Below are positions 1 through 4,768 of a DNA stretch of 4,768 nucleotides, piece after piece; position 1 is the stretch's first letter, and each line of letters opens with the position of its first letter. A program made the translations under genes and the position numbers. The stretch is taken from the NCBI RefSeq assembly GCF_003334255.1, contig NZ_QOWU01000107.1. One strand, given 5' to 3'. The notes under the pieces are model-generated. The model made no database searches. It had not been told where the DNA came from and saw only the letters and a program-made list of their open reading frames with translations. The stretch comes from Escherichia coli. GTDB lineage: Bacteria > Pseudomonadota > Gammaproteobacteria > Enterobacterales > Enterobacteriaceae.

Positions 1-180
1 CACGCCTGAAGGGAAAGCTGCACGTTATCAGCAAGCGTTACACTCAGCGCATTGAGCGACATAATCTGAATCTGAGACAACATCTGGCAAGGCTGGGACG
101 GAAGTTACTGTCGTTCTCAAAATCGGTGGAGTTGCATGACAAGGTCATCGGGCATTATCTGAACATAAAACACTATCAGT
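1..180 (+). CDS. insB: IS1 transposase InsB, C-terminal fragment (5' end outside window)
   Basis: Open frame from nt 3 to TAA at 178-180 (59 codons), near-identical to the recalled IS1 InsB C-terminus. Two residues differ from the canonical copy as I recall it (KLL for KSL, KVIG for KIIG), suggesting an IS1 iso-form. Confidence 0.85.
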
Positions 181-197
181 AAGTTGGAGTCATTACC
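175..197. repeat. IS1 terminal inverted repeat (right end)
   Basis: 23-bp sequence atcagtaagttggagtcattacc matches the IS1 IR consensus. Confidence 0.85.
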
Positions 198-267
198 TCC
201 TCCCGAACTCAAAGCTATCATACAGATAATTACTGGTTAACCCTATATAGGGCATTTTAAAGTGTTG

Positions 268-633
268 TGATCTTACCCAGCAATAGTGGACACGCGGCTA
301 AGTGAGTAAACTCTCAGTCAGAGGTGACTCACAAGACAAAACAGTTTCAACCAGTAAAAAAACGTAAACACCATTCGCATGAATTTCGTAGTTAAGATCT
401 GAAGCTTGCAGAATGCATCGGTATTACTGCCGGAGTCCGTGAACTTAGTCTGCATGAATCACCACAGCTTTACATCTGTCGCAGTAAACAGCAAAATCAG
501 CAAACTTACTTAATTATATCGAGTGCGATTACAATCGCTGGCGATGGTACAGTTGGTGTGGCGGTCTCAGTCCGGAACAATTTGAAAATCAGAATCTCAC
601 TTAAAACGGCATCCATTTTACAAAAGATGGCCG
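268..633 (+). mobile_element. IS3-like (IS3 family, IS3 group) remnant with a large internal deletion: left IR plus degenerate orfA 5' part joined to orfB 3' end plus degenerate right IR
   Basis: Sequence from 268 (tgatcttacccagcaatagtggacacgcggctaagtgagtaaactctcagtcagaggtgactcac) matches the recalled IS3 left end. Downstream sequence is diverged orfA-like coding (..KQQNQQ). At about 505-512 it switches to sequence encoding [31 protein letters not shown] (509-604), compared with IS3 InsF C-terminus [31 protein letters not shown]. The right IR region (about 596-633) is recognisable but degenerate. Confidence 0.75.
333..604 (+). pseudogene. Degenerate IS3-like transposase remnant: orfA 5' fragment (start codon ATG replaced by AAG, frameshifts, in-frame TAA) fused by deletion to the last 32 codons of orfB
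   Basis: AAG at 333-335 sits where IS3 orfA has ATG. Translation tracks IS3 OrfA (TKTVSTSKK.., [18 protein letters not shown]) only with indels and a stop. The orfB tail frame is intact from 509 to TAA at 602-604. Confidence 0.7.
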
Positions 634-893
634 TCTGTGTATTTGTAATGAATACCTTCTACATGTTTAGAGTGCATAATCCACGACAAGGCGATATCCT
701 AAAAATTAGCTAGCAGGCAACTTTGATGGCATAGATAATGTTTTTAGTAAAAAAGAGTTGACTGAATATAATACAGCCTCTTCCTACATAAGAAGGAATG
801 TGCTCACAAAAAAAAACCATTAGTCTGCTTCCTGTTCTTACAATAATCAGTATTATGTATTTTATTTATATAGCAAAATATGCTTGTTACACC

Positions 894-902
894 TGTCATA
901 AT
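894..902 (+). promoter_or_regulatory. Candidate extended -10 promoter element (TGtCATAAT) upstream of the small ORF
   Basis: TG at 894-895 lies one base upstream of hexamer CATAAT at 897-902, about 42 bp upstream of ATG 944. No convincing -35 was found, consistent with an extended -10 promoter. A purine-rich Shine-Dalgarno GGGGGAGA lies at 933-940. Confidence 0.25.
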
Positions 903-943
903 TAGGCATGGTAAAATTATTGACTGAACCCTGGGGGAGAAAG

Positions 944-1201
944 ATGCACAGTGATTATTATAATATGGTTTTTGGTGAAAAATTGGCCAATATTTTATAT
1001 GAAGCTAACTCTCAATTTTTTTACGAGAGAAATGTCATAGAAGAGGCAGTCAACGCTTTATTCTGTGAGCGTGAAATAATAAACAACAAGAACATAATAA
1101 AGAAGCTGATGTTCTTTTTGTCAGATGTTAATCACACCAAGAAAGATGTTGTTCAGAGCGCACTTAATATTATCATTGACATTACATCAGGTGATATTTG
1201 A
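944..1201 (+). CDS. Hypothetical small acidic protein (85 aa), AT-rich, no family recognised
   Basis: The ORF runs 908-1201 in the track. I favour ATG 944 (MHSDYYNMVFGEKLANILYEANSQ...) because GGAG at 936-939 sits 4 nt upstream, whereas ATG 908 has only AGG at 1-nt spacing. The sequence is strongly AT-biased with asparagine/isoleucine/lysine-rich codon usage typical of horizontally acquired DNA. Confidence 0.45.
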   Translation: MHSDYYNMVFGEKLANILYEANSQFFYERNVIEEAVNALFCEREIINNKNIIKKLMFFLSDVNHTKKDVVQSALNIIIDITSGDI

Positions 1202-1478
1202 GATTTTACATAAAGGATAATCTCTCAAGGAGTCTTATCTGAAAACGAAATATATAGTCCCTCTCGTTTTGTAATATCGATTGGCTTTGTTGAATCGGTT
1301 ACGTACCCCGGAGCCGGTCATATTTTCAGGTAATACACACGCTTTCAGACATTTCGGCTTTCGTCATTTTGGTATCATGGGCATAGCTTCTGCTACCTGA
1401 CCATCATAATCACGCAGCTTCAGTGAAGCAGTGACCACCTGTTTAACCCGGTGTATCGTTATGATCTTATCCAGCAAT

Positions 1479-1669
1479 TGAACCGCCCCGGGTTTCCTGG
1501 AGAGTGTTTTATCTGTGAACTCAGGCTGCCAGATCATCGTTTCCGATGGAAGCATAATAAGCTTTTTCTGCTTCTGCCGGTGGGATATGGCCCTGCCTTT
1601 CCAGCAATCGTCGATTGTTATACCAGTCCACCCACGTGAGTGTGGTCAGCTCATCATACTGACACGTGC
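1479..1669 (-). mobile_element. IS629/IS1203-like (IS3 family, IS51 group) right-end remnant: terminal IR plus 3' end of orfB, truncated on the other side
   Basis: The plus strand from 1479 reads TGAACCGCCCCGGGTTTCCTGGAGAGTGTTTTATCTGTGAACTC, which matches the recalled IS629-type terminal repeat. The minus strand from 1669 to 1521 encodes ..YDELTTLTWVDWYNNRRLLERQGHIPPAEAEKAYYASIGNDDLAA*, an rve/DDE integrase-core C-terminus typical of this group. No upstream transposase sequence is recognisable beyond about 1669. Confidence 0.7.
1521..1669 (-). pseudogene. IS3-family (IS629-like) transposase OrfB, C-terminal 49-codon fragment
   Basis: Minus-strand frame is open from 1669 to TGA (complement of 1521-1523). 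It carries the WxxWYNxxRxxxxxGxxPPxExE..YY motif of IS3-family integrase cores. There is no start codon and it is truncated at the 5' side. Confidence 0.65.
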
Positions 1670-1800
1670 ATTACCCCTACCGCGATAATGCAACCGTACA
1701 ATATAGGGCGTTTCCTAAACGCAGCCCTCATCACTCCAATCCAACAAGACACAGCATTTTTGATCACGAAGAAAGACAAATAATTTCCGTAAATGTTTCC

Positions 1801-1818
1801 GTTGTTACAAATAACAAC
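1801..1818. promoter_or_regulatory. Candidate operator: inverted repeat GTTGTTA-caaa-TAACAAC upstream of the phytase-like gene
   Basis: Perfect 7-bp arms with a 4-bp spacer at 1801-1818, about 115 bp upstream of ATG 1934, preceded by direct repeats TTTCCGT at 1784-1790 and 1796-1802. No cognate regulator is encoded in the window. Confidence 0.25.
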
Positions 1819-1933
1819 AGTGTTTTACATTTCTTTGGCCTCAGGCCCGCGCATGTTGCCATTCGATGTCATTTTCCTGACTCGTTTCTTCTTTATGGTG
1901 TAGTGTGATCTTCACTTTATGGATGCTAACAAT

Positions 1934-3292
1934 ATGAAAAGAAAAATTATTCCCGTGCTAATCGGTTGTACGCTCTCTTTCTCTGCCCTGGCGGCACAAC
2001 CTACGGCTGAGCGCTATGTCGTCAGTTTTCCAGAAGGCACGCACGTGAACTACGCCGGCGCATTTGCCAGTGCATTCCCGAACGGCCTTCCGGTTGGGAT
2101 AGGTTCTGGCCTGCTGTTCACCGGTAAACAGGGCGATGCCCTGACATTCGCAACCATTACCGATCGCGGTCCGAACGCGGATTCACCGAAAGAGGGGAAA
2201 AACGAAACTAAAATTTTCGTTACGCCAGATTTCGCGCCGCTGCTGATGACGATTCGTGTACAAAACGGCAAAGCGGAGGCCATCGATCCCCGTCCTCTGC
2301 ATGACGATAAAGGCGCGATCAACGGTCTGCCGCTGGCAAGCGACGTGATTGGCTCCACCAATGAAGTGGCCTTCAGCGACACGTTACATAGACTGAAGGG
2401 GGATAATCGCGGGCTGGATACGGAAGGGATCACTCCGGATGGTAAAGGAGGTTACTGGCTGTGCGATGAGTATGGCCCGTTCCTGATTAACATCGACAGT
2501 AAAGGGAAAATCCTGGCAATCCACGGTCCGCAGGCGGCGGAAGGGGAAAAAGCGATTGCGGGCGGTTTGCCAAATATCCTCAAATGGCGTCAGGCGAACC
2601 GCGGCTTTGAAGGCCTCACCCGTATGCCGGACGGGCGTATTATTGTCGCCGTGCAAAGTACGCTGGATATCGACGCTAAGAGCAAGAAAAAGGCGCTGTT
2701 TACGCGTCTGGTGAGCTTCGATCCGGCAAGCGGAAAAACCGCGATGTACGGTTATCCTATCGACAGCGCGGCCTACAGCAAAAACAGCGACGCTAAAATC
2801 GGAGACATCGTGGCGCTCGATAACCAGCACATCCTGCTGATCGAACAGGGAAGAGATAAAAACAACAGAATGCGTAACCTGATTTACGAGGTCGATCTCA
2901 ATAAGGCGAGCGACCTGTCAGGCTTCGACAAGCCGGGTGAGTATCCGGAGTTTGATGATGAGAAAACCCTGTCACAGCGCGGCATTACCCTTGCGCAGAA
3001 AACGCAGGTTGTTGATCTGCGCTCCTTGGGCTGGCAGCAGGAGAAGGCTGAAGGGTTGGCGCTGATCGACAGCAAAACGCTGGCGGTGGCGAACGATAAC
3101 GACTTTGGCGTGAAGGTGGCGATGCAACATCCGGTCGAGGGCAAGACATTCAAGGATTATCGGGTGAACGCGGAAGGAAAGCTGACGCTTGACGACAAGC
3201 AGGTTGAAACGACCCTCAGAGTGAAGCCACTGGAGAAACCGGAGTCTGACAGTGAACTGTGGATTGTGACGCTGCCGGAAGCGTTGAAATAA
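1934..3292 (+). CDS. Secreted beta-propeller protein of the phytase-like / SdiA-regulated (YjiK-like) superfamily, often annotated 'esterase-like activity of phytase family protein'; 452 aa from ATG 1934
   Basis: Long ORF 1919-3292. I favour ATG 1934 because it gives a classic Sec signal peptide (MKRKIIPVLIGCTLSFSALA|AQPT) and has GGA 10 nt upstream; ATG 1919 is the in-frame alternative. Motifs GIGSGL...ITDRGPN, DTEGITPDGKGGYWLCDEYGP, NRGFEGL and NDNDFG match recalled signatures of Pfam phytase-like (PF13449) and SdiA-regulated beta-propellers. Codon usage is typical enterobacterial and GC is clearly higher than in the AT-rich segment upstream. Confidence 0.9.
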   Translation: MKRKIIPVLIGCTLSFSALAAQPTAERYVVSFPEGTHVNYAGAFASAFPNGLPVGIGSGLLFTGKQGDALTFATITDRGPNADSPKEGKNETKIFVTPDFAPLLMTIRVQNGKAEAIDPRPLHDDKGAINGLPLASDVIGSTNEVAFSDTLHRLKGDNRGLDTEGITPDGKGGYWLCDEYGPFLINIDSKGKILAIHGPQAAEGEKAIAGGLPNILKWRQANRGFEGLTRMPDGRIIVAVQSTLDIDAKSKKKALFTRLVSFDPASGKTAMYGYPIDSAAYSKNSDAKIGDIVALDNQHILLIEQGRDKNNRMRNLIYEVDLNKASDLSGFDKPGEYPEFDDEKTLSQRGITLAQKTQVVDLRSLGWQQEKAEGLALIDSKTLAVANDNDFGVKVAMQHPVEGKTFKDYRVNAEGKLTLDDKQVETTLRVKPLEKPESDSELWIVTLPEALK

Positions 3293-3530
3293 GTTTATAA
3301 GGTACGGACAGCAGTATCGCTTAGTTTTTCAAATTCATGTATGTGAACAATATTGGGGTTCCGGCGTAGACCCCCAATGAAAGCGTCACCACGTGAAAAC
3401 ATGCCTGCACGGTTTACACGTCATCCCATGGTGGCAGCCGGTTAACTTTCCTGCTACACCAGTGGAAAAAGGCCATAAGCAGTCCGAACAAAAGTAAGCG
3501 TACAGCGAGGGCCGTATTGACGGGGATGTG

Positions 3531-4768
3531 TTATTCAGCTGGCAGTGCTATGCGCCACGGAAGCAGTTCGCTGACCCGGTTGACCGGCCAGTCTGCTATG
3601 ACGCCAAGCACATGGCGAAGGTAGCTTTCTGGATCCACGTCATTCAGTTTGCACGTCCCGATCAGGCTGTACAGTAGCGCTCCCCGCTCACCACCATGGC
3701 CAGAGCCGAAGAACAGGGTCTTCATCTTTTCACGCAACCAGCTTTCCAGGGATTTCAACAGCGGTTTCGTTTTTCGCTGACGTTCAGCAAGCCGCTGCTA
3801 TGCCGGCATTCCCCTTATATCCGCCTCTATGGCGTACAACTGACCGATCTGCTCCAGGGCTTCTTCCGTCAGTGCTGACGGGATGCGGACGTGCATATCG
3901 TGGATCTTTCGGCGGGCATGAGCCCAGCAGGCAGCTTCCGTTATCCCACCATTGCGATACAGCTCGTTGAACCCGGCGTACGCATCCGCTTGCAGCACAC
4001 CGCTGAAGCAAGCAAGATGAGTCTGCGGATGGATGCCTTTTCTGTCCGGGCTGTAAGCGAACCTCACTGCAGGTGCCAACGCTGACCCGGCATTGCGGTC
4101 ATCACGAACATACGCCCACAACCGCCCGGTCTTCGTCTTCTTATTACCCGGCAGCAGTACCTGGACCGGGGTATCATCGGCATGGAGTTTGCCGTCAGTC
4201 ATGACATCGCCATGAAGCGCCTCTTCCAGCGGAGACAGCAGCCGGCAGCATGCATCCACCCAGCCCGACAGCAGTGAACGGCTCAGCTCCACACCTTGCC
4301 GGTCGTATATTTCTGACTGGCGATACAGCGGGGTGTGCTCTGCATACTTCGAGGTCAGCACGCGGGCCAGCAGCCCCGGTCCGGCGATACCCCGCTCGAT
4401 GGGCCGCGAAGGTGCAGGTGCCTGCACGATGGCATCGCACTGAGTACAGGCATGTTTTTCCCGTACCGTCCGGATAACCCGGAAGGCGCTACGCATCAAC
4501 TCCAGCTGTTCGGCGGTATCCTCGCCCAGATAGCTCAGTGAACCGCCGCAGTTCGGGCAGCACGGCGCCGCAGGCAACAGCCGCTTTTCGTCACGGGGTA
4601 GTGATTCAGGGAACGGCTTACGGGGGCGGGTCTGACGCAACGGACGCTGTACTGCCGGGTCATACACCCTACCAGTCAGCGTATCGCTCTCTATCGCTCT
4701 CTTTCTGAAGCCGGTTCAGATCGGCTTCCATTTGTGCGATACGGCGGGAGACTTTTTCGGAACGACTG
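3531..4768 (-). pseudogene. tnpC: IS66-family transposase (TnpC/orf3) pseudogene: N-terminal frameshift from a 10-bp tandem duplication, in-frame TAG, and a probable in-frame internal deletion
   Basis: Minus-strand ORF 4667-3798 (..[39 protein letters not shown]..) ends at TAG (complement of 3798-3800). The same frame continues [71 protein letters not shown] to 3531. Upstream of 4667 the conserved N-terminal sequence (..[25 protein letters not shown]) is in a different frame, offset by the duplication at 4682-4701. Confidence 0.85.
4682..4701. repeat. Perfect 10-bp tandem direct duplication (tatcgctctc x2) inside the IS66 transposase 5' region
   Basis: Read directly: 4682-4691 and 4692-4701 are identical. 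The unit is not a multiple of 3, so it shifts the frame. Removing one copy joins ..LQKESD to [17 protein letters not shown].. in one frame. Confidence 0.9.

Follow-up and report, generated by a model that had tools for sequence, protein, structure and literature searches.

A 10-bp tandem duplication in an ISEc8 transposase pseudogene of the Escherichia coli type-strain lineage, and its occurrence on IncF plasmids

Short tandem duplications that shift a reading frame raise a simple question: is the duplication the event that silenced the gene, or did it land in a gene that was already damaged? The question is posed here by a stretch of 4,768 nucleotides of Escherichia coli DNA, called the window, in which a transposase gene is broken by two adjacent copies of a 10-bp unit. 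A sequence-only reading of the window, made before any comparison with other genomes, took the duplication to be a clean inactivating lesion that removal of one copy would repair and that slipped-strand mispairing could reverse. The feature is a tandem-duplication frameshift in a transposase pseudogene, an ordinary kind of lesion, and RefSeq already annotates the gene as frameshifted. We propose that the 10-bp duplication arose spontaneously in tnpC and is very probably the middle one of three disabling lesions in an ISEc8 relic, at a site where units were later switched and exchanged.

Identity to E. coli ATCC 11775/DSM 30083 (NZ_CP033092.2) is 100% across the final 1469 bases of the window. 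Over the whole 4768 bases, the sole difference from NZ_CP033092.2 is a run of nine A residues rather than eight at 808–816. Because of that difference, the window is considered an independent assembly or stock of the type-strain lineage.

The interrupted gene had been assigned to the IS66 family from its translation, and this assignment holds: the element is ISEc8. In the RefSeq annotation of the locus, tnpA (381 nt) and tnpB (348 nt), both intact, are followed on the same strand by the tnpC pseudogene, which is labelled “IS66 family transposase; frameshifted; internal stop”. This gene order matches intact ISEc8 and is the three-gene arrangement of the IS66 family. Intact ISEc8 of E. coli O157:H7 (e.g., NZ_CP022050.2, 477432–479744) has the same tnpA-tnpB-tnpC organisation and encodes the same TnpB protein, WP_000612591.1. 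The features of the element that lie within the window are as follows.

3531–4768, minus strand: tnpC pseudogene (IS66-family DDE transposase), identified from RefSeq, translations and the Pfam domains of an intact relative; the stop codon TAA is at 3531–3533, and the first 158 nt of the gene lie beyond the end of the window
3494–3520, no strand assigned: terminal inverted repeat at the tnpC-distal end (GTAAGCGTACAGC...), with 13/13 terminal bases matching the other end

The TnpC of intact ISEc8 from O157 has 512 aa. Pfam places a leucine zipper at residues 39–110, a zinc finger at 119–161, the DDE_Tnp_IS66 domain at 175–461 and a C-terminal element at 468–505 (PF13007, PF13005, PF03050 with an E value of 3e-106, and PF13817, respectively). 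The leucine-zipper domain of TnpC has been noted previously (PMC3971601). Apart from its lesions, the window’s tnpC aligns base for base with intact ISEc8, at about 99% nucleotide identity, and its domain content is that of an IS66-family transposase. Both ends of the element read GTAAGCGTACAGC and begin with GTAAGCG, the start expected of an IS66 terminal inverted repeat and the one found in ISEc8. The element extends from 3494 past the end of the window, and homology to ISEc8 copies elsewhere ends at window positions 3492–3494. Unlike intact ISEc8, the window’s copy is 2299 bp long and lacks an 8-bp target-site duplication, as the flanks are GAACAAAA (window 3486–3493) on one side and CACTATTT on the other. 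The missing target-site duplication suggests that the element was rearranged later or that IS copies recombined; this lack is a property of the history of this copy and no argument against IS66 membership.

Direct reading of the sequence finds TATCGCTCTC twice, head to tail, as claimed for positions 4682–4701. Tandem Repeats Finder reports the interval 4682–4702 with the same unit, a period of 10, 2.1 copies and 100% matches, where the fraction beyond two copies is the T that follows the second unit. The chance expectation for perfect 10+10 tandem repeats, from mononucleotide shuffles of the window, is about 0.008; hence the duplication is not a chance repeat. Its parts, and the stop codon to which it leads, are as follows.

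4682–4691, minus strand: first 10-bp unit, TATCGCTCTC on the plus strand and AGAGAGCGAT in the coding-strand register, from Tandem Repeats Finder and the sequence; single in intact ISEc8 and in EC958
4692–4701, minus strand: second 10-bp unit; one of the two copies is extra and adds 10 nt after tnpC nt 224
4669–4671, minus strand: premature TAG met after the frameshift; product predicted at 85 aa, with 78 native and 7 aberrant residues

The duplication begins at nt 225 of the gene, and the native frame is lost after residue 78, within the leucine-zipper domain. Past the repeat, the minus-strand frame that carries the N-terminus reads RERYADW and then meets the TAG. Beyond the repeat, a second minus-strand frame is a long ORF that runs 289 codons; GTG at 4665–4667 opens this downstream ORF. 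The jump between frames that the sequence-only reading described is therefore real, and in silico removal of one unit merges the two frames. The lesion has the marks of a tandem-duplication frameshift: the copy is exact and head to tail, the unit is single in relatives, and its length is not divisible by 3. In the ancestral one-unit sequence, the site contained no repeat, and flanking microhomology there is limited to 1 bp.

The ancestral state is read from an alignment of the ATCC gene, the orthologous copy of strain EC958, which has the same flanks, and intact ISEc8 from O157. Against intact ISEc8, exactly one 10-bp unit is extra, and the sequence flanking it is identical on both sides; this is the comparison by which the sequence-only reading proposed to check itself. 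Alignments place a 10-nt gap opposite the repeat in intact ISEc8, in EC958 and in ISEc22, whose tnpC has one unit. In searches with a 100-nt probe, every copy annotated as an intact ISEc8 transposase matched at 90% identity, which corresponds to the 10-nt gap, and no two-unit transposase was found among these annotated intact copies. That is, intact IS66 copies carrying both units, which would have spoken for a normal two-unit state, are absent from the annotated intact copies, all of which have one unit.

The duplication is not alone in the gene. Compared with intact ISEc8, the window’s copy has gained 10 bp, lost 153 bp and acquired a nonsense codon and several amino-acid substitutions.

3798–3800, minus strand: nonsense codon TAG (GAG>TAG, E373*), in frame, from the alignment to intact ISEc8
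3713–3717, minus strand: junction of a 153-bp in-frame deletion; the 5-bp CCTGT is retained once, and residues 401–451 of the 512-aa protein are removed
3699–3701, minus strand: GAT>GGC (Asp>Gly) in the conserved FGSDHGGE block, also present in EC958

In intact ISEc8, CCTGT borders the deleted 153-bp segment at both ends. The deletion takes 51 residues out of the DDE domain (PF03050), including the block EIDNNIAENALR...GRKN, which is conserved in ISEc22 and in ISCro1 (58% identical overall) and which may contain the catalytic glutamate. A literature search for IS66 catalytic residues and for this 10-bp duplication returned nothing usable. Judged from the loss of 51 PF03050 residues, among them a conserved block, the 153-bp deletion would abolish transposase activity. 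With three lesions in its tnpC, the window’s ISEc8 copy is predicted to be unable to transpose. The substitutions specific to the ATCC lineage point to neutral decay: 6 of the 7 change the protein, counting the nonsense codon and five further amino-acid substitutions. Thus the word “clean” does not suit the duplication, since the 153-bp deletion and E373* lie in the same gene. The claim that removing one unit restores a continuous protein fares better in part. The frames do join, but the TAG at 3798–3800 and the loss of 51 DDE residues remain, and because the repaired frame retains both, removal of one unit would give no working transposase.

The order of the lesions can be read from the chromosomal locus, at which the IS66 element sits between a phytase-like gene and zinc-ribbon genes. 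Eight copies were sampled at this locus, and the 153-bp deletion is present in 8/8, with or without the duplication. EC958 has the deletion as its sole lesion of the three. Strains 95-3322 and 14EC001 have the deletion and the duplication without E373*, and ATCC 11775, E110019, DA33133 and Res13 have all three lesions. Since the deletion is common to every locus copy sampled, the duplication appears to be a second hit in an already truncated gene; and since two strains with the duplication, 95-3322 and 14EC001, lack E373*, the nonsense codon should be younger than the duplication. By parsimony, on few sampled genomes, we infer that the deletion came first, then the duplication, then the nonsense mutation.

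A history of the element can be proposed on this basis. An in-frame deletion of 153 bp between the two CCTGT repeats would have come first and cost the protein 51 catalytic-domain residues. A spontaneous 10-bp tandem duplication would then have added 10 nt after codon 78, in the leucine-zipper domain. From then on, translation would leave the native frame and stop 7 codons on, yielding an 85-aa fragment without the zinc-finger and catalytic domains. The GAG>TAG nonsense mutation would have followed, the outcome being an immobile ISEc8 relic. The two-unit allele is old and widespread, and occurs also in an ISEc8-type tract of an ISEc22 relic on IncF plasmids, most likely through gene conversion between IS66-family copies. 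More than one change between the one-unit and two-unit states would have taken place at the site, through replication slippage, conversion or both.

The EC958-type orthologue bears on how such copies are annotated. It occupies the same chromosomal locus with the same flanks, and both the 153-bp deletion and Asp>Gly are present in it as in the window’s copy. It differs from the window’s copy in having one unit and no nonsense codon; its ORF is thus uninterrupted, with 51 DDE residues missing. In RefSeq, it appears as an intact 461-aa “IS66 family transposase” (WP_000998019.1), and the same is seen in other strains. The EC958-type copy is probably non-functional, going by its missing domain segment, and escapes pseudogene flagging. 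Counts of “intact” IS66 copies may therefore be inflated, given that this one-unit 461-aa orthologue lacks 51 catalytic-domain residues.

How far does the two-unit allele reach beyond the type strain? The 100-nt probe, centred on the two units, was matched at ≥99% against E. coli complete-genome records (n = 20,395) and against PLSDB. The allele was found in 623 of the 20,395 records and in 557 PLSDB plasmids. About 55–59 of the 623 records are ISEc8-type and nearly all of these are chromosomal, against some 565 records of the plasmid type, a split that is approximate, as some megablast alignments are partial and end at the duplication. The chromosomal ISEc8-type two-unit copies examined are all at the same locus as the window’s copy. 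The remaining two-unit records are on IncF plasmids, including pUTI89, pUM146 and many ST131-type plasmids.

The plasmid element is a mosaic. It is ~100% ISEc22 except in tnpC nt 126–510, where it is ISEc8-type at 57/58 informative sites, and the duplication falls within this tract. The mosaic relic (pUTI89, pECSF1, many ST131-type plasmids) has flanking sequence identical to that of the window’s copy across tnpC nt 126–510, and its two-unit versions carry the identical allele. It differs from the window’s copy in its ISEc22 backbone, in the splitting of its tnpC by IS100, in frequent truncation by IS26, and in occurring in both one- and two-unit versions. In the SCAID WND2-2021 plasmid, the ISEc8-type tract reaches back to nt −358, inside tnpB. 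This variable tract length indicates that homologous IS66-family copies exchange sequence by gene conversion, which offers a simple route for one duplication into chromosomal and plasmid contexts. Transfer between chromosome and plasmid may have run either way. Two linked SNPs were considered as markers and rejected. G336 does not mark the two-unit allele, as at least 60 one-unit records carry it, intact ISEc8 copies included, and one plasmid has the duplication together with A336. C292 does not mark a single origin, as it is present in intact one-unit copies.

Reversal of the duplication, proposed from the sequence alone, receives indirect support from populations. One-unit relics are found on pECSF1, pEC19-2, pMPNDM-5 and other plasmids, alongside the two-unit relics. 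Two plasmid haplotypes can be told apart by 7 SNPs in IS100 and by the IS26 truncation, and one-unit and two-unit alleles occur in each. The presence of both alleles on both haplotypes calls for at least two changes of state or for recombination within ~1.3 kb. A pair of collinear NDM-5 plasmids from dogs in Zurich offers a close comparison: p51008369SK1_E (99,465 bp) has two units and pMPNDM-5 (99,454 bp) has one. As near-identical plasmids differ by the unit, the site changes on short time scales. The pair differs by 23 events, namely, 16 in one IS1 copy, 5 near repA, one 1-bp indel and the 10-bp unit. The 16 IS1 events are packed in ~280 bp. Such clustering implies that conversion is active in these plasmids, and the differences between the two near-identical plasmids are dominated by conversion-like patches in repeated elements. 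Where assemblies disagree on one or two units, sequencing or assembly error may account for some of the cases, although errors of precisely one 10-bp unit are unusual.

Frameshifts that follow when a short tandem repeat gains or loses a unit are familiar from Streisinger-type slippage, for example at the lacI CTGG hotspot. The present site resembles that system in its exact head-to-tail repeat and in a unit number that sets the reading frame, and its two-unit state is expected to be prone to loss. It differs from the lacI type in a unit of 10 bp, a single ancestral copy with 1 bp of flanking homology, and only two states. Slippage, or conversion from a resident one- or two-unit ISEc8 copy, may bring about the switching, and these are equally good routes. 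Hence the reversibility proposed by the sequence-only reading stands insofar as both alleles occur on near-identical plasmid backbones; its attribution to slipped-strand mispairing is matched equally well by gene conversion. No three-unit allele was found in 5,426 genomes. Nor was the exact ATCC haplotype minus one unit, the best match being 99.2%, so that neither a revertant nor a direct ancestor of the ATCC-type allele is represented among these genomes. A bolder view is that the 10-bp site is an unstable marker that toggles fast and moves, by gene conversion, between IS66-family relics on chromosomes and plasmids. We hold this view tentatively, at a little less than an even chance. If true, the site could be used as a fine-scale marker of IncF plasmid micro-evolution and, within E. 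coli, as a natural reporter of conversion among dead IS copies.

Several other accounts of the duplication deserve consideration. It might be the primary and sufficient lesion of an otherwise intact transposase, such that loss of a unit would reactivate the element. The joining of both frames upon removal of one unit fits such an account, as do strains 95-3322 and 14EC001, in which the duplication occurs without the nonsense codon. The account is nevertheless very improbable: the repaired frame of the window would still hold the TAG at 3798–3800 and miss 153 bp of its DDE domain, and the deletion is found in all sampled locus copies, even those without the duplication. A further idea is that the two-unit state is functional, whether as a programmed frameshift site, as an alternative start or as a phase-variable transposase switch. 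Unit number does vary between one and two in natural populations, and the GTG at 4665–4667 does open the downstream ORF. Against this, the annotated intact transposases of ISEc8, ISEc22 and ISCro1 are all uninterrupted one-unit ORFs, and the two-unit copies examined are without exception damaged elsewhere, by the 153-bp deletion (in some together with the nonsense codon) or by an IS100 insertion, which leaves nothing to switch. A programmed ribosomal frameshift was rejected on the first of these grounds, the functional copies being single one-unit ORFs, and a +10 insertion is not known to act as a recoding signal. A phase-variable contingency locus was rejected on the second, as the site shows no states other than one and two units and all the two-unit copies examined are otherwise disabled. 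We give a functional role almost no credence. That the duplication is a sequencing or assembly artefact is hardly conceivable. Short indels are a common class of error in long-read assemblies, but besides the window, at least two other assemblies of the type-strain lineage (NZ_CP033092.2 and JCM 20135) contain the duplication, and the 623 two-unit records come from many laboratories and sequencing platforms.

A more serious contender concerns the number of origins. The identical duplication may have arisen several times at a hotspot, in chromosomal ISEc8 and on IncF plasmids, rather than once with subsequent transfer. Repeated origin has in its favor that the allele does not follow the flanking plasmid haplotypes, that a near-identical plasmid pair differs in unit number, and that the linked SNP G336 is not diagnostic. 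Yet the ancestral sequence is not an obvious hotspot, having 1 bp of flanking microhomology and no prior repeat, and the 5,426 genomes contain no three-unit allele. Moreover, the plasmid duplication lies inside an imported ISEc8-type tract of variable length, which means that gene conversion does occur, and mechanistically it is far easier for a two-unit site to lose a unit than for the identical unit to be gained repeatedly. Repeated origin is thus judged unlikely, and we favor the account given above, in which a duplication in an already truncated ISEc8 copy was subsequently switched and exchanged among relics.

For the biology of the E. coli type strain, the finding matters little: one ISEc8 copy is a triple-hit pseudogene that RefSeq already flags. 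A practical point is that dead IS copies continue to trade sequence and can lead plasmid typing based on SNPs or indels astray. This exchange is illustrated by the 10-bp allele, as it is common to chromosomal and IncF relics and differs between near-identical plasmids.

The surroundings of the element contain further IS debris. With coordinates transferred from RefSeq features, IS fragments lie upstream in the window at 1–255, 500–604, 1326–1456 and 1521–1652; they are the terminal part of an IS1F-like element whose CDS stops at 182, a pair of fragments from the IS3 family and one IS5/IS1182 fragment. Set among this debris are two cargo genes. At 908–1201 is an apparently intact gene for a YmgB/AriR-family biofilm regulator of 97 aa. 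The segment 1934–3292 encodes an “esterase-like activity of phytase” family protein of 452 aa as annotated, also apparently intact, for which the mechanical ORF start is at 1919. Finally, a short DUF6404-family gene remnant at 3414–3491 adjoins the IS end and is annotated in the E110019 region and in other strains.
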